Source: Escherichia phage EPFV3-03/2025
Length of the DNA: 64,000 nucleotides
Strand: one strand, 5' to 3'
Sequence record: PV435126.1
The number at the start of each line of letters is the position of its first letter. Position 1 is the stretch's first letter. Under the pieces are notes generated by a model, which saw only the letters and a program-made list of their open reading frames with translations, searched no databases and was not told the DNA's origin. Below are positions 3,427-15,017 of this stretch, piece by piece. The translations under genes and the position numbers were made by a program.

Positions 3427-4326
3427 ATGGCAAATCTTAACAGCTTTAGCACTCGATGGAAACAAGATATCACAACCAATCTCTCTGCAGGCGATATCCT
3501 TTCTGCAATTTACGAGGCTTTGGATGATAAAGCTACTTCAAAATCGGTTTGTACCAACCCGTTAATTCCTATGGTAATGAAGGTGATTGAGCGTAGGTTG
3601 GTATCCGGATCTGATAAGTGGACATATCTGGATAATGGAGGCCACACTTACTCCAACGGCTATGTCGATATAAAAGTAGAATATGCGGTATCATATCGCC
3701 GGAGCGGCTCTGTAACTTTCAACTTCTCTGGTGGTTTCCGATCTCTGGCAACTTCACCTTTTGTTTCCTCAGAGGAGAAGTTTGAACTTCCGTTCCTTTG
3801 GATGATGGCTAACGCGACAGGCAAAACCCCTGTAAGCATTCGCGTAAAATACAACTACAACGGATCTAGTAAGATCTATGCTGAGAGTGTCTCAGCAAGT
3901 TTTTATTTTGTGATGGGGGATGGAATCCTCAAACATATAAAGATGTGCGATATGCATGATGTTATAAATGAAGTGACTGATAAGAATGTTCTGGTGAAGG
4001 ATCTCAACAATTTTTATACACCAGGGGACTATTACGTCAACCGTCCACTGTGCATCTTTAATGCTGCACACCCTTTAGGTGAGTATTTGATTGCCAATAG
4101 TGATATTGCCAATAACCGCTTCGAGGTAGCAAGAGTACAGAATGAGGTGTTGACATCTTGCAAGAGCGGTGATAAGTTTACCGAAGAAGAGATGGGTGTT
4201 TTAGAGATGATGGGATATAAGTGTAGCCTTTGGGTAGATGAGGTGTTTAATGACGGCATCTATGGACAGGATATTTACCCGTTAAAGAAGTATACTGATT
4301 CCAGTTTAATTTACGCGGGGATTTGA
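3427..4326 (+). CDS. hypothetical protein (299 aa)
   Basis: ORF with AGGAG 10 nt upstream of ATG; first gene of plus-strand block. Confidence 0.55.
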   Translation: MANLNSFSTRWKQDITTNLSAGDILSAIYEALDDKATSKSVCTNPLIPMVMKVIERRLVSGSDKWTYLDNGGHTYSNGYVDIKVEYAVSYRRSGSVTFNFSGGFRSLATSPFVSSEEKFELPFLWMMANATGKTPVSIRVKYNYNGSSKIYAESVSASFYFVMGDGILKHIKMCDMHDVINEVTDKNVLVKDLNNFYTPGDYYVNRPLCIFNAAHPLGEYLIANSDIANNRFEVARVQNEVLTSCKSGDKFTEEEMGVLEMMGYKCSLWVDEVFNDGIYGQDIYPLKKYTDSSLIYAGI

Positions 4327-4601
4327 CTATGATGAAGGCATGTGGTAGTGTATACTATGTGGGTGAAAATGTTCAGGCAGACAGTGTGTGGAAATCCATT
4401 AAGTCCACCACCGATGATGCCTTCTTGAGCGGGTTATGTTTCCCCAATCCCGGAGACATTCTCCCTTACCCTGGGGATTTTGTTGTCAACAAGACGGACG
4501 GTTATACCGTGTGCCTGATGGTAGAAAAAATCTTTTTAGACACTAGACACAATCACCGTCTTGTGTTAAAATTTCAAGAATGTAAAATGACAGTTGCCTA
4601 A
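4323..4601 (+). CDS. hypothetical protein (92 aa)
   Basis: ORF overlapping upstream stop by 4 nt; no motif recognised. Confidence 0.4.
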   Translation: MTMMKACGSVYYVGENVQADSVWKSIKSTTDDAFLSGLCFPNPGDILPYPGDFVVNKTDGYTVCLMVEKIFLDTRHNHRLVLKFQECKMTVA

Positions 4602-4613
4602 GGAGGCCTACCA

Positions 4614-4970
4614 ATGTCTAAAGTTACTTATCGTGCAGCTATTTACTGCAATGAGCAACCAATCAATAATGATGGTCACTGCTTTTTTAAAGAAAATCAG
4701 TTGGGCTGTATTGCCCTCCTTGATGAAGGGGAAGGTTATATGATTGCATTGACAGGGTTTGAGCCTGAAGCCTTGGAAGCCAATCTGGACTACCTGGTAG
4801 AGAAGGGTGCTGCAGACCTGGTTGCCAATGGCCTCTCCATAAGCCTTGAAGAAGTGGAGCGCTTCATGGGCAATTACCGTGTAGTGCGTGAGTTTACTAT
4901 CGAGGTGGAAACTCCGGAGTGGGGTAGCACTGAAACTAATGCTGAAGAAAAAGAAGAGGGGGTAGAATAA
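4614..4970 (+). CDS. hypothetical acidic protein (118 aa)
   Basis: ORF preceded by AAGGAGG; acidic C-terminus. Confidence 0.5.
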   Translation: MSKVTYRAAIYCNEQPINNDGHCFFKENQLGCIALLDEGEGYMIALTGFEPEALEANLDYLVEKGAADLVANGLSISLEEVERFMGNYRVVREFTIEVETPEWGSTETNAEEKEEGVE

Positions 4971-5227
4971 TGAAAGTGCAGATCTTGACTAATGCCGAGA
5001 AGATGTTTATCGAAGATACGCCTTTTGAAACTGGTGAGCTACAGTTTGTATATTTTGTTGACTTAGATAAGGTTTTTCCTGCGCTGAATCTGGGTTTGGA
5101 GAAAGTACCTTATAAAACTCTATGCCAGGTTGTCCGTGCCTTAGCCGCAGATGGGGAGTTCCACACCCTTGAAGATATCCAGACCTATGGGTATCTTGAA
5201 CTGCAACGAGAAGAAGAGGTAGACTGA
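4970..5227 (+). CDS. hypothetical protein (85 aa)
   Basis: ORF with ATGA start/stop overlap with upstream gene. Confidence 0.45.
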   Translation: MKVQILTNAEKMFIEDTPFETGELQFVYFVDLDKVFPALNLGLEKVPYKTLCQVVRALAADGEFHTLEDIQTYGYLELQREEEVD

Positions 5228-5229
5228 TA

Positions 5230-5610
5230 ATGGCCCAGTGGAAGACAACAGTTGACCTTCATGATCAGTGGTTAGGACGCATAACTGAAGACGGGAAACT
5301 GGTAGAGTGGGACAACAAGCATGTTAGCGAGTTGGCAAGTATTGTGGCTGGCAAGTTACGCTCCAAGTTCCCTGAACAACTGGATCCTGATAGTTCAAAG
5401 TTCGATCCTGAGTTGGAGGATGTTGTATACTACTTCGACACCGTGGATGACTACGATGCGTGGTTTGCAGCACTGGAGTTATACCCACAAGGATCCGCTA
5501 TGCGCCGGATGGAAGAAGATTACCCTCCGTGTGAGCAATTCAATAGTGCAATGACTTGCCTTTATGATTGGGCAGATAAGAACCTTGTCTGGATTCGGAC
5601 TGCATTTTAG
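5230..5610 (+). CDS. hypothetical protein (126 aa)
   Basis: ORF in operon-like array; no motif recognised. Confidence 0.5.
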   Translation: MAQWKTTVDLHDQWLGRITEDGKLVEWDNKHVSELASIVAGKLRSKFPEQLDPDSSKFDPELEDVVYYFDTVDDYDAWFAALELYPQGSAMRRMEEDYPPCEQFNSAMTCLYDWADKNLVWIRTAF

Positions 5611-5654
5611 TGGGTAGGGATGGCGGCAAGGATGCTGCTTAAGGAGCAGTAGAG

Positions 5655-5924
5655 ATGTTATACCAGCAGTACGAACTTCGTGCAGAAAAAGAATTAAATT
5701 TTGACAAAGATATTCACAGATATTATTATGGGAAAGTTAGAGGGCAAGCAAGAAAGTGTACTCCAACACTCTTTCATGCCAGCAGACGACTAGCTCCAGA
5801 AGAGGCAACAGCAGAAAGGGTTGCATATGGCTGGAGAGTTGCGTATGATATTGACAGATCCGATGTGATGTCTGTTTTGGAAAACTTTGAAAACACTTAC
5901 ACACAAGTAGAGGACTTTTACTAA
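5655..5924 (+). CDS. hypothetical protein (89 aa)
   Basis: ORF in operon-like array; stop overlaps next start. Confidence 0.45.
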   Translation: MLYQQYELRAEKELNFDKDIHRYYYGKVRGQARKCTPTLFHASRRLAPEEATAERVAYGWRVAYDIDRSDVMSVLENFENTYTQVEDFY

Positions 5925-7108
5925 TGTCAAGAAACGTATTCGAAAGTGGTCAAATCACTGTCCGCGAGTTGCCAGCTATTATTCAATTTGCCCAGCGTCA
6001 TAACCGATCTGTCCTGATTTTAGGACCGATGGGTGTGGGGAAGAGCCAGGTGATGAAGCAGATTGCTGATAATATGTTCGGTGAGCGAGATGACAACCTG
6101 GTTGACGTGCGGCTGTCAGATAAAGATCCTGCTGACTTGTCTGGACTGCCTATCCCTGTAGAGGCAGATGGAACTACACGCACAGTGTTTGCAATTCCAG
6201 AATTTTGGCCTGCAGACTCGGACTGGAGCGGAATTATCTTTCTGGATGAGCTTACTCATGCAGATAACTACCTGCAGAAGGTTGCAATGCAAATTATGCT
6301 CGACCACAAGTGCGGCACCTATGCATTTCCTAAGGGCTCTGTTTTTGTAGCTGCAGGTAACCGTGCTACAGATGGTGCTGTTCTTTCAGCGCTCGAAGCT
6401 CCTCTGGCTAACCGCTTTATCATTGTAGAAGTTACAAGCAATGCAGAGGTATTTATTGAGGACTACGCCTTCCTTAATGGTGTGCATTCCTCTGTAATTG
6501 GATATCTGAAAAGAGTTCCATCAGCTATCGATAATTATGAGGCTATGGCTGAGATTAATTGTCCATCTTTTGCCACACCGCGATCTTGGGTTGCTGCATC
6601 TGACATCCTGCACGATTTTGACAGCGGCATTATTTCTGACGCTATGGCTCGTGTTCTTCTGCAAGGTGCTATTGGTCACACTGCAGCGGTAGAAATCTGG
6701 ACCTACCACACCAAGAAACGAAACTTGCCAGAAATCGGTCGGATTATGGCAGGGGGTTGCAAAGAATATGTAGGTCCTAAGCAGCCAGATATCTTGTGGA
6801 TTCTTGGGTCTGAAGGCTGTATTGCTATTCGGAATATGATGGAAAATGCAAGTGTCTCAGATGAAGATCTTGTTAGCTGCGTGGCAAACTTCCTTGATTT
6901 CCTTTGGGAAAATTTCAAGGATGAGAACCGAGACTTTGTATTCTCAGTCTTTATGGCGATGATGAAACCCAACGCCCTAGGAAATGCCTTACTTATTGGT
7001 AAAGGTCGGGACAAGATCGTTGCTCAGCTGATCAAAGCATACCCGAACCTGATGAAGATTGTAAAAGAGTTTGGTGAAGAGTTTAGCGCCATTTTAGCTA
7101 AAGCTTGA
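5924..7108 (+). CDS. MoxR-like AAA+ ATPase (394 aa)
   Basis: Walker A GPMGVGKSQ, Walker B IIFLDELTHA, MoxR-like spacing and length. Confidence 0.85.
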   Translation: MSRNVFESGQITVRELPAIIQFAQRHNRSVLILGPMGVGKSQVMKQIADNMFGERDDNLVDVRLSDKDPADLSGLPIPVEADGTTRTVFAIPEFWPADSDWSGIIFLDELTHADNYLQKVAMQIMLDHKCGTYAFPKGSVFVAAGNRATDGAVLSALEAPLANRFIIVEVTSNAEVFIEDYAFLNGVHSSVIGYLKRVPSAIDNYEAMAEINCPSFATPRSWVAASDILHDFDSGIISDAMARVLLQGAIGHTAAVEIWTYHTKKRNLPEIGRIMAGGCKEYVGPKQPDILWILGSEGCIAIRNMMENASVSDEDLVSCVANFLDFLWENFKDENRDFVFSVFMAMMKPNALGNALLIGKGRDKIVAQLIKAYPNLMKIVKEFGEEFSAILAKA

Positions 7109-7117
7109 GGAGGTTGT

Positions 7118-7498
7118 ATGGCTAAAGTAGGTAAGCGGGGAAACTACTTGGTGGTATTGACAGAGGAGCCGGAGAAGGAGTACGAATGCAGCTCCACTTG
7201 CGTGATCGATATCCGAGAAAAAGATGTAGATGAAATCTGGTTTAAAATATTAGACGCTTGCGACAGCAGTGACTATTTCTTCATCTATGTCAACGATAAA
7301 GCGGGATTCTTCCATGACGATGGAGAGTTACCGTATGAAATCTATGAGCTTGTAGAGGCTTGTCATCGTGGAGATGCGGAGTTGTTTGGCCTACGGCTGA
7401 AAAGCGGTAAATTCTTCTACCAAGACGAGTGCATGAATCTTCACAACTTCGTAGAGGGAACTTGCAACGATGGAGAGATTCTGGCACACTACGACTAA
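7118..7498 (+). CDS. hypothetical protein (126 aa)
   Basis: ORF followed by intrinsic terminator. Confidence 0.5.
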   Translation: MAKVGKRGNYLVVLTEEPEKEYECSSTCVIDIREKDVDEIWFKILDACDSSDYFFIYVNDKAGFFHDDGELPYEIYELVEACHRGDAELFGLRLKSGKFFYQDECMNLHNFVEGTCNDGEILAHYD

Positions 7499-7511
7499 TT
7501 TCTAAGACCAC

Positions 7512-7538
7512 CCCCGCTTCGGCGGGGATTTTCTATTT
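7512..7538 (+). terminator. rho-independent terminator
   Basis: GC stem CCCCGC/GCGGGG with UUCG-type tetraloop, then ATTTTCTATTT. Confidence 0.7.
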
Positions 7539-7547
7539 GGAGTTATT

Positions 7548-8048
7548 GTGAAAATTAAAATCTTTGCTATTATTTTGAGCGCATTTTTATCGCTGCCTGT
7601 TGTTGCAGCACCAAAACAAAAAGTATACCACACCTGCAAGCCATCGGATACTAAGGAGAACATTCTGGCATGCAATATCTACAGGGAAGCCAGAGGAGAT
7701 GGCACGATGGGTATGCTGGCATCTGGGTTTGCCACACTAAACAGGAAATCTCACCCTAAATACCCAGACACTATAAGAAAGATTGTCTACCAACCTAACC
7801 AGTTTTCGTGGACAAACCACGGCAAAACTTTTAAGGTGACAGAAAAAGATTCATGGGATCACGCTAAAAGTCTTGCAAAGATGCTTCTAAAGGTCTATAA
7901 TAACAACCATGTTGCATACATGGCTATGGATATAACAGGTGGAGCAACACACTATCATACAACAAAAGTACGACCGGAATGGGCAAAAAAGATGCAGAGG
8001 ACAGCTCAATTCGGGAGTCATATCTACTACAAGGAGCGCAATAAATGA
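7548..8048 (+). CDS. secreted SleB-like cell wall hydrolase (166 aa)
   Basis: N-terminal signal peptide MKIKIFAIILSAFLSLPVVAAP; YREARGDG...LNR...QPNQFS matches SleB/Hydrolase_2 signature; GTG start. Confidence 0.7.
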   Translation: MKIKIFAIILSAFLSLPVVAAPKQKVYHTCKPSDTKENILACNIYREARGDGTMGMLASGFATLNRKSHPKYPDTIRKIVYQPNQFSWTNHGKTFKVTEKDSWDHAKSLAKMLLKVYNNNHVAYMAMDITGGATHYHTTKVRPEWAKKMQRTAQFGSHIYYKERNK

Positions 8049-10027
8049 TTGTAAACAGTAATGAAACTAAAGCAGTGCTAACTGGGAATTTGGAGGTCAC
8101 AAGGGGATCAATTTCTCTGAACAAAGAGACTTTTGGGTTAATCATTAAAGGGATTTATGAAGATAAGGTGCTGGCAAGCTGCCGTGAACCAATCTTCAAT
8201 GCTGTAGACTCCCATGTTGAGTCTGGACGTGGTGATGTTCCGATCATCATTCACTCCCCTACAGATCTTGAACCATACTTCTTTGTGCAGGACGTTGGCC
8301 TCGGTATGTCAGAAGAGATGGTCCGCAACACTTTCATGAACCTCGGTGAGTCAACCAAGCGCAACAGCAACGCTCTGGTAGGCAATAAAGGTGTTGGTTC
8401 AAAGGCCCCGTTCAGCATGGTGGACACTTTCGATGTAATCAGTGTGCACAATGGTGTGGAAAGCACATATCTATTGTTCTTGGATCAGGGTATCCCAAAT
8501 GTCACCAAGATCCGTGAGCGGAAGACTGAAGAGCACAACGGGGTAAAAGTTCAGTTTCATGTTAAGAAAGAGCATGTTCTGAAATATCGCACTGCTATTG
8601 CATCATGTCTGCGCTATGCAAAATTTCCGTTCACTGTCACCGATCCGATGACGAGCAAGATGCTGGAGGGAGACAAAGTAGAGGCGCAGTATTATTATGA
8701 AAAAGATGGTTGGAAGATGACCATCCTGAAGGGCTATACCAGCTCTGACGAGAGTCGTGTGGTAATGGGTCACCAACCTTACCGTTCTAAGTTCCTGGAA
8801 ACACTAACAGATTATCCTGCAATTTGTGTAGAGATCCCTATCGGAGATTGCAATATTAACCCAGGGCGTGAGTGGACCATAGAAGGTCACGACGATGGTG
8901 GATTCCAAGATCGTTTGGAAGCTTTTGTCAAAGAAGGCATTCGCCTTCGTGGAGCAGAAGTTGTTGCAGAACTGGAGACAGCAAAAACATCCTCAGAAGC
9001 ACGCGAGATGATGAAGAACAGTGGAGTGTTCGGGCACATTTTCGGCAAGAATTTTATGTATGACCGCTGGGAAGAAACAGGGTTAGGGAGTTTGGGGGAC
9101 TGCGAGATCTTCGCTGGCGGCTTAAATAAAGGCCGCATAGGTTACGCCTGCTACGGAAAGGTAGAATTCTTACGGGGAGTTTATTTAGTATTTAACGACG
9201 GAGACGGCAAATATAACCGGAATAAGTGTAACTACTTAAGCGAGATCACCGGACGCAACGTTTTCTATTGCCGGAACACGGATCTGGTAAAAGAGTTTAA
9301 AGAGGCGGCACACCATCCGTTCTTTGCAGATACGGTCAAATTGTTATCAGAGCTCCCTCGCCGACCTGTGAAGAAAGGTGAAACAAAAACTCGTTATGAG
9401 CCCGGTTATTGGGTTAAAAAACTTGAGAAGGATGGTTACTTCCGTCGTGAGCGTATTACCAAGGCAGAGTTCAGGAAGATTAAGCACTGCATACCATATG
9501 AGGGGGATATCCAACGTGGAAGTTGTTGGCTAGGTCAGATGAGTAACATCTACCAGCAAAATTATGACCGTGTGCGTGCGGCACTCCAGATCCCTGAAGG
9601 GGAAGATCTATACCTGGTATCGGAATCTCGTCTGCTTTGGACTGATCCTGATTGCCAGTATGTTACAGAGAAGAATGTGGAACATTTGTTGAAAGAGGAT
9701 GCTTGGAAATTCTTACTGACTCGCGCAGCAAATGAAACTTCATATGACAGCCTGTATAGACAGTTGGGAAAAATTATCCCTATGCAAGATTTTGGAAATT
9801 ATAAGCCACATTTCCACAAGTGGGAAGGTAACACCACGTGGAAGTACGGTGAGCTGAATCATCGTGCCAAAATCTTAATCGCCAACCGGGTTAAGTGCGG
9901 GAAGGCATATATTGCGAGACTGGAAAAGAAATATCCACTTTTGAAGCATGTAGGCTTGAAATATTGGGACACTCCTGCTATGATTGAATACCGTGAACTG
10001 ATTGATACAAAGAATAACATCAAATAA
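8045..10027 (+). CDS. Hsp90-like GHKL ATPase domain protein (660 aa)
   Basis: Bergerat-fold motifs FNAVDSHVE (N box), DVGLGMSEEMV (G1), NLGESTKRNS, GNKGVGSKAPFS (G2); C-terminal about 500 aa unassigned. Confidence 0.6.
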   Translation: MIVNSNETKAVLTGNLEVTRGSISLNKETFGLIIKGIYEDKVLASCREPIFNAVDSHVESGRGDVPIIIHSPTDLEPYFFVQDVGLGMSEEMVRNTFMNLGESTKRNSNALVGNKGVGSKAPFSMVDTFDVISVHNGVESTYLLFLDQGIPNVTKIRERKTEEHNGVKVQFHVKKEHVLKYRTAIASCLRYAKFPFTVTDPMTSKMLEGDKVEAQYYYEKDGWKMTILKGYTSSDESRVVMGHQPYRSKFLETLTDYPAICVEIPIGDCNINPGREWTIEGHDDGGFQDRLEAFVKEGIRLRGAEVVAELETAKTSSEAREMMKNSGVFGHIFGKNFMYDRWEETGLGSLGDCEIFAGGLNKGRIGYACYGKVEFLRGVYLVFNDGDGKYNRNKCNYLSEITGRNVFYCRNTDLVKEFKEAAHHPFFADTVKLLSELPRRPVKKGETKTRYEPGYWVKKLEKDGYFRRERITKAEFRKIKHCIPYEGDIQRGSCWLGQMSNIYQQNYDRVRAALQIPEGEDLYLVSESRLLWTDPDCQYVTEKNVEHLLKEDAWKFLLTRAANETSYDSLYRQLGKIIPMQDFGNYKPHFHKWEGNTTWKYGELNHRAKILIANRVKCGKAYIARLEKKYPLLKHVGLKYWDTPAMIEYRELIDTKNNIK

Positions 10028-10037
10028 GGAGACCAAG

Positions 10038-11243
10038 ATGATTTTCATCTACGAACATTTCAAAACCCGTAAAGAAGCACGAGACCGCCGTGCAGAACTT
10101 GAGAAGAAGGGTTTCACATGCGCTATTGAGAAAGGTAACACAACCTGGACACTGGCCGTGGGTGCCCCAGAGGTGTTCGATCCTGACCGTGACAGCGTTT
10201 GTTACACCCGTGAGGATTTTGAAACCCGTGAAGAGGCCCGTTTATTTCGATATGGGCTGGAAGACAACGGCAAGTACGCCATGATCTTGGATTTAGGGGA
10301 GGAGTCCTTTAAACGCTGGGGAGTGGTATACCCGCTGTGCGTTGTTCACGGTGTGGGGTTCACTGGGGTAGCAGTTAAGTCAGAAGAACCTTCGGTAGAA
10401 GTCAAAGATCCGGTTCTGGAGGTGGTGAGCAGTGTGTCTCAGCAACAGACTCGAAGCATCGAGCCTCTGGTAGTTATTTGTGGGGAACTCTTGCAGATCA
10501 CTTGCAACGAAGGCATTTTTGAAATTCGCCGCAGTGAAAGTGGGGAAGTTTACCAGAAAGTCTTCAACCATATCTCTGTTCAGGAGTATGACGAGGCAAT
10601 TGGTGAAATCCTTGTCTGGCTGGAACGCAAGAATGAGTTCACTACACTGGCAGACAACCTGATCATGAAAGATGGTAAGCTCTACTACTACGGTGTAGAG
10701 ATGCGATCTACCATTGCAAAGAAAATTGAGAAAGATTATGCAGATGGAACACTGGATGACCGCTATGTGAAATTCCTAGTTCGCCTGTTACGCAATCCGT
10801 CTGCAAAATCTGTAAACATGCTCTACGATTTTATGCAGGCAAACGACATTCAGATTGCAGAAGATGGTCGAATCATTTGCTACAAAGGGGTTCAGTTTAA
10901 CGGTAACAAGTGGGTGGATTGGCACAGCGGTAAAGTCCCACAATACCAGGGAGCTTTTGTATCCATGCCTCGTAACTTTGTAGAGGATGATCCGGAAGCT
11001 GCATGCTCTTATGGCCTGCACTGTGCCAGCAAAGAGTATGCAAAGAGCTACGGCACTGTGATGACGGTTATGGTTGACCCTGCCGATGTGGTCAGCGTAC
11101 CTTACCAACACAACAGCGCTAAGTGCCGTGCATGCCGCTACGAAATCGTAGTAGCTCCAGAATCGCGCAAAGATGGAGACCCAATCGAGTACGTGGTTGA
11201 CCGCGACGGCAACACTATCGACACTATCTACGAGGAGGCGTAA
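10038..11243 (+). CDS. hypothetical protein (401 aa)
   Basis: ORF; start moved to ATG 10038 with AGGAG upstream; no motif recognised. Confidence 0.5.
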   Translation: MIFIYEHFKTRKEARDRRAELEKKGFTCAIEKGNTTWTLAVGAPEVFDPDRDSVCYTREDFETREEARLFRYGLEDNGKYAMILDLGEESFKRWGVVYPLCVVHGVGFTGVAVKSEEPSVEVKDPVLEVVSSVSQQQTRSIEPLVVICGELLQITCNEGIFEIRRSESGEVYQKVFNHISVQEYDEAIGEILVWLERKNEFTTLADNLIMKDGKLYYYGVEMRSTIAKKIEKDYADGTLDDRYVKFLVRLLRNPSAKSVNMLYDFMQANDIQIAEDGRIICYKGVQFNGNKWVDWHSGKVPQYQGAFVSMPRNFVEDDPEAACSYGLHCASKEYAKSYGTVMTVMVDPADVVSVPYQHNSAKCRACRYEIVVAPESRKDGDPIEYVVDRDGNTIDTIYEEA

Positions 11244-12613
11244 TGGAAAAAGGGCAGTACGATGTAGGCACAGATGCTGCCCTTGTTGCAATCATGAGTG
11301 GTGAGAATGTCTTCGTAAGTGGACCTGGTGGAACCGGGAAGACATATCTTATCAACATGATCCAGTCCATGTATGGAGACTCTTGCATAACGGTTGCCCC
11401 GACAGGGGTAGCCGCTTTAAACGTTAATGGAGCAACAGCGCACCGAACTTTCGATCTTGCCGCAGGTGTGAGCATGGAGTCAGACTGGACAGCAATAAGG
11501 GCAAAAACAGCAAAGCCTCTGAAAAGCAAGGCATTTACCATCCTAATTATCGATGAAATCTCTATGATCCGTGCTGACAAGTTCATAGAGATGGATAGAA
11601 AACTCCGCTTTCTTCGGAAAAATGACAAACCTTTCGGAGGCATTCAGGTGTTATTGTTTGGAGATTTCTACCAAGCGCCTCCAGTTGTCTCTTCCATGGA
11701 GAAAGAAGCCTACTTCAACTTCTACCACACAGATCTGTGTTGCTATACAGAATCTTGGGAGGATCTTAATCTTCACAATATAGCCTTAGTAGACCAGTTC
11801 CGTCAGGAATCTGTTCGCTTCGCCACAATGTTGAACTGTGTTCGTGAAGGTCGTCGCATAAAAGAGGTTGTAGCAGAGCTTAACACTCGTTGCTATCATG
11901 GAGGTGTCCCAACAGATGCTTTGACTATCTGCGCCACCAATAAGCAAGCAGAGGAGGTGAACAGACGTTTCTATGATGCCATTCAGGCCCCAGAGAAGAC
12001 CTACATTGGTAAAATGAAGGGTAAGTTCCCTTCCACACTGCCTGTGGAGCAGGAAATGAGGCTGAAGATAGGGATGAAGGTTATGATAACCTCAAACGAT
12101 GTTGACCCTACTCACAAAGTTCCGTATTATGTCAACGGTACACGTGCCACAGTGGTAAAATTCAAGACTAAATCCGTGATAGTTGAGCTAGAAGACGGGA
12201 CACAGGTTGAAATTGAGCCGAGATTGTGGGAGAATAACGAGTACAAACCTTCCCAGAGGTACAATATTGCCGAAAGGAAGATGGAGAAGTTCATAGAGAG
12301 GGTTGTGATCGGGTCTTATGAGCAACTCCCTTTGAAATCTGGGTACGCAGTAACATCGCATAAAAGTCAAGGACTTACGCTAGATTGTTACAACCTAGAC
12401 CTCGGAAAGAACGGAGCTTTCTCTCCCGGAATGACGTATGTTGCCTTGAGTCGGGTTAAGACGATACAAGGAATAAACTTGTTGCGTCCATTAAGAGAGG
12501 TGGATATTATTGTTGACCCGCGAGTCGTAGAGTTTTATAATACAACTTTCCCTGGCTTAGACGAGAAAGTCAGGAAAGATTTTGAAACTAGAGCAGAAAA
12601 GGGGGACGTATGA
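11243..12613 (+). CDS. Pif1/RecD/Dda-type superfamily 1 DNA helicase (456 aa)
   Basis: Walker A VSGPGGTGKTYL, Walker B IIDEISM, C-terminal GYAVTSHKSQGLTLD. Confidence 0.85.
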   Translation: MEKGQYDVGTDAALVAIMSGENVFVSGPGGTGKTYLINMIQSMYGDSCITVAPTGVAALNVNGATAHRTFDLAAGVSMESDWTAIRAKTAKPLKSKAFTILIIDEISMIRADKFIEMDRKLRFLRKNDKPFGGIQVLLFGDFYQAPPVVSSMEKEAYFNFYHTDLCCYTESWEDLNLHNIALVDQFRQESVRFATMLNCVREGRRIKEVVAELNTRCYHGGVPTDALTICATNKQAEEVNRRFYDAIQAPEKTYIGKMKGKFPSTLPVEQEMRLKIGMKVMITSNDVDPTHKVPYYVNGTRATVVKFKTKSVIVELEDGTQVEIEPRLWENNEYKPSQRYNIAERKMEKFIERVVIGSYEQLPLKSGYAVTSHKSQGLTLDCYNLDLGKNGAFSPGMTYVALSRVKTIQGINLLRPLREVDIIVDPRVVEFYNTTFPGLDEKVRKDFETRAEKGDV

Positions 12614-12948: not shown

Positions 12949-13008
12949 TAAGATGTGAGCATAAAGGGGAGGAACTCCTCCCCACAAAACTGAGGAGAGC
13001 ACCAAACG

Positions 13009-14201: not shown

Positions 14202-14209
14202 CACTAGGT

Positions 14210-14234
14210 CCTGCCCGAAAGGGTGGGGCTTTTT
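14210..14234 (+). terminator. rho-independent terminator (copy 1 of duplicated hairpin)
   Basis: CCTGCCC-GAAA-GGGTGGG stem-loop followed by GCTTTTT; same hairpin recurs at 25612. Confidence 0.65.
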
Positions 14235-14252
14235 GCATTAGGAGACAGCAAA

Positions 14253-15017
14253 TTGAAATTTATCTACAAAGAACACCACCACAAAGGTGTTGTGTGGAGT
14301 CTATTTGATGGGTCTGGTGGTGCAGTCATTGACTGGGCAAAAGCTGGGTATCTGTGCCTGTGCTTTAATGCAGAAGGTGCTGACCATGGTAGCTATGCAG
14401 AGGTGATAACCGATCATCCCAACATTCACTACGTGGATTATTGGATTGACCCGTGGTTCCCTCAAGAAACTTTTTGCATGTACCCAGCTCCAGACTTTAT
14501 TCTTGCATTTCCTCCGTGCACGCATTTAGCAGTATCAGGTGCTGCACATTTTAAGAAAAAGCTGGCTAAGGACCCCCTGATCCAAATTAATGCTGTAAAA
14601 GATGCTCGGGTTGCGGAAGAGCTGGGAGAGATCTACGATTGCCCGTGGCATGTAGAGAATCCTGTGGGTGTTATGTCCACACTGTGGCGCAAACCTGATT
14701 ACCGTTTTCACCCTTCGGATTATGGCGGGTATTTACCGGAAGATGATGTAAACCCATGGTTTCCTGAATTTATAGCTCCACGTGATGCCTATCCAAAAAT
14801 AACTTGCGGATGGATAGGTAACGGATTTATAATCCCGGCCACAAAACCTGTCCCGCAGATAGTGGATGCGGTTAGTGGTTATTCTATGCAACACGCTAAG
14901 CTAGGTGGAAAGAGTGCAAGGACGAAGATGATTCGAAGCCTTACACCACGTGGCTGGGCTAAAGCTGTATTCTTAGCAAACGAGCCTGCAGTAAGGAGCA
15001 GAATTAATGGGCAGTAA
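14253..15017 (+). CDS. DNA cytosine-5 methyltransferase-like protein (about 254 aa)
   Basis: Motif I LFDGSGG, motif IV AFPPCTHLAVSG (PC-Thr instead of PCQ), motif VI HVENPVG; start placed at TTG 14253 after AGGAG because ORF-track start lies inside the terminator. Confidence 0.5.
   Translation: MKFIYKEHHHKGVVWSLFDGSGGAVIDWAKAGYLCLCFNAEGADHGSYAEVITDHPNIHYVDYWIDPWFPQETFCMYPAPDFILAFPPCTHLAVSGAAHFKKKLAKDPLIQINAVKDARVAEELGEIYDCPWHVENPVGVMSTLWRKPDYRFHPSDYGGYLPEDDVNPWFPEFIAPRDAYPKITCGWIGNGFIIPATKPVPQIVDAVSGYSMQHAKLGGKSARTKMIRSLTPRGWAKAVFLANEPAVRSRINGQ

Follow-up and report, generated by a model that had tools for sequence, protein, structure and literature searches.

The window analyzed here, 64,000 nucleotides of Escherichia phage EPFV3-03/2025 (sequence record PV435126.1), contains two adjacent genes whose products, of 660 and 401 amino acids (aa), are members of the rIIA and rIIB families, respectively. 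Very probably the two are the rIIA/rIIB orthologues of a Vequintavirus (rV5-like) Escherichia coli myophage and constitute a conditionally required counter-defence module against Rex-type abortive infection. The pair, among the most familiar in phages, is already known: more than a hundred sequenced Vequintavirus genomes, near-identical ones among them, have it annotated, and functional tests exist for a relative with 95-97% identical proteins. As a near-identical, correctly placed copy of a known gene pair, the locus alone matters little. The rII family itself is of general interest, since the neutralization of RexAB by a GHL-type ATPase and its partner is still a question some 70 years after Benzer. 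The locus adds small leads rather than discoveries: in rIIA, a two-domain GHL module bearing an invariant R-E motif; in rIIB, a core without a solved-structure analogue and an exchange of a helix-turn-helix (HTH) for SPOR-like repeats.

Identity and probable counter-defence function of the pair

The 660-aa open reading frame (ORF) and the second ORF, ending at 11243, are both present as first described, and a chance origin of frames of 660 and 401 codons is highly improbable. rIIA matches phrog_612, "RIIA lysis inhibitor", over almost its entire length (E 1.5e-123; residues 1-658 on positions 1-724 of the 725 in the profile), and BLASTP aligns it with T4 rIIA (NP_049616) over the N-terminal 198 aa only, at 28% identity (E 4e-21). 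A tblastn search with the protein matched 2,876 phage records, and most of the annotated ones are named rIIA. For rIIB, BLASTP against the T4 protein gave 37% identity over 204 aa (E 9e-40), and residues 132-373 match phrog_609, "RIIB lysis inhibitor" (E 2.9e-61). Foldseek on BFVD returned 31 matches at E ≤ 0.001, of which the named ones are nearly all rIIB proteins, with E values to these reaching 1e-53. Homologues of rIIB bear the precomputed Pfam family PF26926; a sequence search of the PDB with rIIB found nothing at E ≤ 1. The first-pass annotation, made from the letters and their translations, had matched neither protein to a familiar phage replication protein and had left the partner uncharacterized; the PHROG profiles, the BLASTP alignments to T4 and the annotation of relatives supply both names.

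Close relatives are numerous. Megablast with a 5.2-kb stretch around the pair matched 120 records in all, 83 of which cover at least 80% of it. Escherichia phage YP-6 is 97.8% identical in DNA over the stretch, and for many further genomes, about 136-140 kb long, identity is 92-97.5%; a record among those listed is named Vequintavirinae sp. The genes are annotated in these relatives as "rIIA protector / rIIA lysis inhibitor" and "rIIB lysis inhibitor" (HMD-6, SYGMH1 and others call the 660-aa gene rIIA), and in some instead as "ATP-binding protein", "SPOR domain-containing protein" or "hypothetical protein". The relative most important for function is EdH4 (Vequintavirus murica, genus Vequintavirus; MK327930). 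Its proteins EdH4_00063 and EdH4_00062 have the same lengths and are 97% (642/660) and 95% (381/401) identical to those of the window, a difference of a few dozen substitutions, and the order hydrolase-rIIA-rIIB-helicase is also the same.

T4 rII mutants fail on lambda lysogens, where RexAB, a membrane-depolarizing abortive-infection system, stops them. According to the literature both T4 genes are needed against it, and in T4 transposon insertions in rIIA or rIIB become depleted with RexAB but not without it (bioRxiv 10.1101/2025.11.20.689424). Similarly, in a report that pooled five phages, knockdown of the rII genes, the EdH4 orthologues included, caused a growth defect only with RexAB (PMC11879866). 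Because the window pair is near-identical to the EdH4 pair covered by that report, we regard its function as known. By analogy, the Rex-dependent phenotype should extend to the window pair, which would be dispensable on Rex-free hosts and required in the presence of RexAB. The family can also be recognized by a defence system: T6 rIIB alone suffices to trigger the Lysobacter CARD/gasdermin system (bioRxiv 10.1101/2023.05.28.542683).

The physical relationship of the two proteins is suggested by their fusions. BFVD entry Q56C47, from Escherichia phage RB43, is a "RIIA-RIIB" fusion of 1,049 aa that appears among the rIIB fold matches. Likewise, phrog_609 extends over 1,055 positions, its N terminus matched by window rIIA and its C terminus by window rIIB. 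Natural fusions and this double match argue that rIIA and rIIB form one physical unit. A further database protein, P0005 (498 aa; from an ENA contig 3,323 bases long), has TPR repeats joined to a C-terminal rIIB core, which over 55% of the query is 99% identical to that of the window; it probably arose as a chimera in assembly or gene calling and is not a real fusion.

These data suggest a model in which the module lets the phage finish infection in cells with Rex-type systems such as lambda RexAB, where the membrane would otherwise be depolarized and infection aborted. We infer that rIIA acts as a GHL-class (GyrB/Hsp90/MutL/MORC) ATPase, probably dimerizing and clamping on ATP binding; the invariant R275 may be contributed to the nucleotide by the second, transducer-like domain. 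rIIB would bind rIIA through its conserved C-terminal core. The variable rIIB N terminus, here two SPOR-like repeats, could then give lineage-specific targeting, and the variable rIIA C terminus might likewise provide lineage-specific contacts. The resulting complex would either prevent the activation of Rex-type abortive infection or not provoke it.

Domain architecture of rIIA and rIIB

Residues 50-147 of rIIA match the Pfam family HATPase_c_3 above its cut-off (E 1.8e-8). We aligned 14 divergent rIIA proteins, T4 included. R47, E48, N52 and D55 of the N-box and D83-x-G85-x-G87 of the G1 box are invariant among them, as are S103, K105, G113, G116-x-G118 (G2) and G166. Since the N-box, G1 and G2 are unchanged across the 14 proteins, the Bergerat motif set of Hsp90/MORC type from which a GHKL ATPase had been proposed is real and conserved; the possibility, raised in the same proposal, that the motifs would be lost on careful alignment did not materialize. 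A second invariant region comprises Y246 and R275-E276, and the P-G/S-R-E motif to which the latter belong is found in T4 rIIA too. The invariance of R-E within the transducer-like domain is mildly new.

An AlphaFold2 model of rIIA, built from 23 homologues, has a mean predicted local distance difference test (pLDDT) score of 83. Its N-terminal 290 or so residues, and only these, superpose on two-domain GHL ATPase modules; as modelled, then, rIIA has a GHL-type two-domain fold. No family or fold assignment was obtained for residues 286-660, and these C-terminal 375 or so residues cannot be aligned with T4 rIIA by BLAST. Of the T4 proteins, the type members of the two families (rIIA 725 aa, rIIB 312 aa), rIIA shares with its window counterpart the GHKL N-terminal domain and the Y and R-E invariants of the second domain.

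Likeness to a topoisomerase or a chaperone does not extend beyond the generic GHL ATPase module, and we rejected either identity for rIIA: family-specific models fail. Sequence identity to GHL modules (Hsp90/TRAP1, GyrB/ParE, MutL, MORC, Topo VI-B) is only 10-16%, the NCBIfam HSP90 model scores 17.8 bits against a cut-off of 455, and in a phmmer search of the PDB TRAP1 appears at E of about 0.1. In a type II topoisomerase subunit, GHKL and transducer domains are fused to or partnered with TOPRIM and DNA-cleavage domains, and Hsp90 has middle and C-terminal dimerization domains; rIIA lacks both these sets, as well as the MutL endonuclease and CW/coiled-coil domains. Unlike GHL-class proteins, it has a C-terminal region of its own and a dedicated partner, rIIB. 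Homology to a characterized gyrase-like subunit or chaperone, which the first-pass annotation had regarded as fatal to its proposal, was therefore not found in that form; the homology is instead to another characterized family, rII, and the novelty is gone. A search with PADLOC for defence-system proteins gave two negligible matches to rIIA (12.7 bits) and none to rIIB.

rIIB consists of a variable N terminus, a linker and the conserved C-terminal core that it has in common with T4 rIIB. The core is without a solved-structure analogue, which is mildly new. The linker is predicted with a pLDDT of 23-30 and varies in length and sequence among homologues. It is the N terminus that distinguishes the two proteins: at the position where T4 rIIB has a HTH, with weak matches to HTH_7 (E 5.6e-5) and HTH_28, the window protein has two SPOR-like repeats followed by a disordered linker, and a Pfam search of it gave no HTH match. 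Because N-termini vary across the family, the absence of the HTH does not exclude membership in rIIB. The SPOR match is weak and the assignment marginal, with a low-confidence loop parting the two units. Nevertheless, the tandem units are kept in Vequintavirinae-type rIIB proteins down to 37% identity. That a tandem SPOR-like (RNP-like) module replaces the T4-type HTH in Vequintavirinae rIIB is mildly new, and a literature search combining rIIB and SPOR domain found no paper. A broader idea is that rII complexes are modular, the rIIA GHL ATPase and the rIIB core serving as a conserved engine and the targeting heads being exchanged to reach different cellular sites or defence systems; we regard this as speculative and rather unlikely. 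If true, the target range of Vequintavirus rII would differ from that of T4 rII.

Alternative functions

One alternative takes the database label literally. On this view, rIIA and rIIB might form a lysis-timing or envelope-integrity module, acting with the co-transcribed secreted hydrolase, in which the rIIB repeats recognize peptidoglycan. The database names ("lysis inhibitor / membrane integrity protector") fit this idea, as do the SPOR-like N terminus, the overlap of the hydrolase stop codon with the rIIA start and the retention of the order hydrolase-rIIA-rIIB in Vequintavirinae. However, nothing in rIIB would place a SPOR domain in the periplasm. Its N terminus (MIFIYEHFKTRKEARDRR) is charged and has no signal peptide, so the protein, without an export signal, is a doubtful candidate for periplasmic peptidoglycan binding, and its units match the SPOR domain, known from proteins such as RlpA, FtsN and DamX, only weakly. 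Neither a conserved hydrophobic segment nor a transmembrane segment was found in rIIB; the maximum 19-residue hydropathy, 1.68, falls at residues 95-113, and we rejected this stretch as a membrane anchor, given its lack of conservation among homologues. Moreover, T4 rIIB carries a HTH and not SPOR-like repeats, and the SPOR assignment is itself marginal. Also against this explanation, the rapid-lysis plaques of T4 rII mutants are regarded as a secondary effect, and the lysis-inhibition machinery proper is T/RI/RIII. We consider it very unlikely.

A DNA-manipulating or replication module, in which a topoisomerase- or MORC-like ATPase clamp of 660 aa and an accessory subunit of 401 aa work with the Dda/Pif1-like helicase on phage DNA, has even less to recommend it. 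Searches of Pfam and NCBIfam and structure comparison detected no TOPRIM, DNA-gate, nuclease, DNA-binding or other DNA-processing domain in the pair, and the topoisomerase likeness is confined to the generic GHL module, for which TRAP1/Hsp90 score at least equally. Nor do the T4 rII genes adjoin a helicase; their neighbors are topoisomerase gene 60 and denB, as opposed to the hydrolase and helicase of the window. The family is reported to be dispensable without Rex in the five pooled phages, near-identical EdH4 among them (PMC11879866), and this harmless knockdown on Rex-free hosts largely refutes the DNA-processing explanation. The pair had been described at first as a DNA-manipulating or anti-defence module. 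The second half of that description agrees with membership in the rII family and identity to EdH4, whereas the first is not supported, given the missing domains and the harmless knockdown.

The least credible alternative makes rIIB a transcription factor that negatively modulates the expression of phage genes, a role suggested for T4-type proteins from their N-terminal HTH, with rIIA as its ATP-dependent regulator. In its favor, rIIB is among the specific transcription factors listed by Iyer et al. (PMC7824862), and the T4 N terminus has its weak HTH_7 match. In the window protein, however, SPOR-like repeats stand in place of a HTH, and conservation is limited to the C-terminal core, in which there is no DNA-binding signature. 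A single function common to the family, if there is one, cannot rest on a HTH that this protein lacks, and a role in transcription cannot be general.

Gene order, probable transcription unit and neighboring genes

The arrangement of the locus is consistent with rIIA and rIIB being expressed together. The hydrolase gene, whose product has a signal-peptide-like N terminus, is the first of a same-strand run that extends through small ORFs 3' of the helicase and is flanked by two hairpins. From their sequence, the hairpin before the hydrolase probably marks the upstream limit of the transcription unit and the strongest downstream one probably its end; the EdH4 record has putative terminators annotated at the sites equivalent to both. 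The rIIA start overlaps the hydrolase stop in an ATGA and is preceded by a Shine-Dalgarno sequence, AAGGAG, 8 nt 5' of the ATG. rIIB begins directly downstream of the rIIA stop on the same strand, with an AAGGAG 7 nt 5' of its ATG. A TTG start at 10002, which a mechanical ORF list had used to give 413 aa, was dropped in favor of this ATG because the latter has a Shine-Dalgarno sequence; the resulting length agrees with the 401 aa initially given for the partner. With this tight coupling, the two genes look co-transcribed. Gene order, strand and the Pfam and PHROG matches likewise bear out the initial description of the pair as part of an operon-like run between a secreted hydrolase and a Pif1/RecD helicase.

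Features of the rII locus and its flanks (positions in the window)
Feature	Position	Strand	Evidence or remark
Terminator-like GC-rich hairpin	7512..7527	+	CCCCGCTTCGGCGGGG then T-run; consensus match only
Cell-wall hydrolase, SleB/CwlJ-type, Pfam Hydrolase_2	7548..8048	+	Pfam E 2.7e-19; phrog_938 endolysin E 1.9e-27
rIIA, 660 aa	8045..10027	+	phrog_612; BLASTP to T4 rIIA; identity to EdH4_00063
rIIA residues 1-190, GHKL (Bergerat-fold) ATPase domain	8045..8614	+	E48/N52/D55, D83xG85xG87, G113/G116xG118
rIIA residues ~191-285, second, transducer-like domain	8615..8899	+	Y246, R275-E276 (P-G/S-R-E motif)
rIIA residues 286-660, alpha/beta C-terminal region	8900..10024	+	Lineage-variable, confidently modelled
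rIIB, 401 aa	10038..11243	+	phrog_609; BLASTP to T4 rIIB; identity to EdH4_00062; BFVD Foldseek
rIIB residues 1-103, two tandem beta-alpha-beta-beta units, SPOR-like	10038..10346	+	(S/T)R-x-EAR motif; model and weak SPOR match
rIIB residues 104-141, linker	10347..10460	+	pLDDT 23-30; variable among aligned homologues
rIIB residues 142-401, conserved core	10461..11240	+	Part in common with T4 rIIB
Dda/Pif1-like superfamily 1 helicase	11243..12613	+	Pfam PIF1 E 1.8e-33; phrog_325 Dda-like helicase E 1.1e-110
Strongest downstream terminator-like hairpin	14206..14231	+	11 pairs, 6 GC

The four-gene block hydrolase-rIIA-rIIB-helicase is kept in the genera Vequintavirus, Mydovirus and Seunavirus of the Vequintavirinae (7548-12613 in the window, 4301-9531 in locus L006, 2082-7384 in locus L007), across which the identity of its proteins drops to about 36-40%. 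T4 is without this arrangement, and its rII genes are likewise adjacent, A then B. The position of the helicase beside the pair is a matter of conserved synteny in Vequintavirinae, and in T4 no helicase belongs to the rII pair; still, the conserved linkage to a secreted hydrolase and a Dda-like helicase may reflect a functional connection.

Several observations concern genes further away. A few genes downstream of the pair, among the small ORFs that follow the helicase, EdH4 has an additional putative adenine-methylase gene of 1.3 kb (locus L005, 3088-4413). It is absent from the corresponding intergenic spot of the window, 12949-13008, where there is a GC hairpin on the minus strand at 12983-12966; Vequintaviruses seem to be polymorphic here for an insertion or deletion. 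Beyond it, a 264-aa ORF with a GTG start (14223-15017, plus strand) corresponds to what HMD-6 labels "DNA cytosine methyltransferase", on a shorter coding sequence of 765 bases. The ORF has no Pfam match at E ≤ 0.001, and the label may rest on weak evidence. On the other side of the pair, a MoxR-like AAA+ ATPase is encoded at 5924-7108 on the plus strand (phrog_1297, E 2e-110). A few kb from it, at 801-2282 and divergently oriented on the minus strand, lies a gene for a DUF2201_N metallopeptidase-like plus VWA-like protein, called "anti-sigma factor" in GenBank relatives; together, the two genes are a pairing of the MoxR-VWA type.

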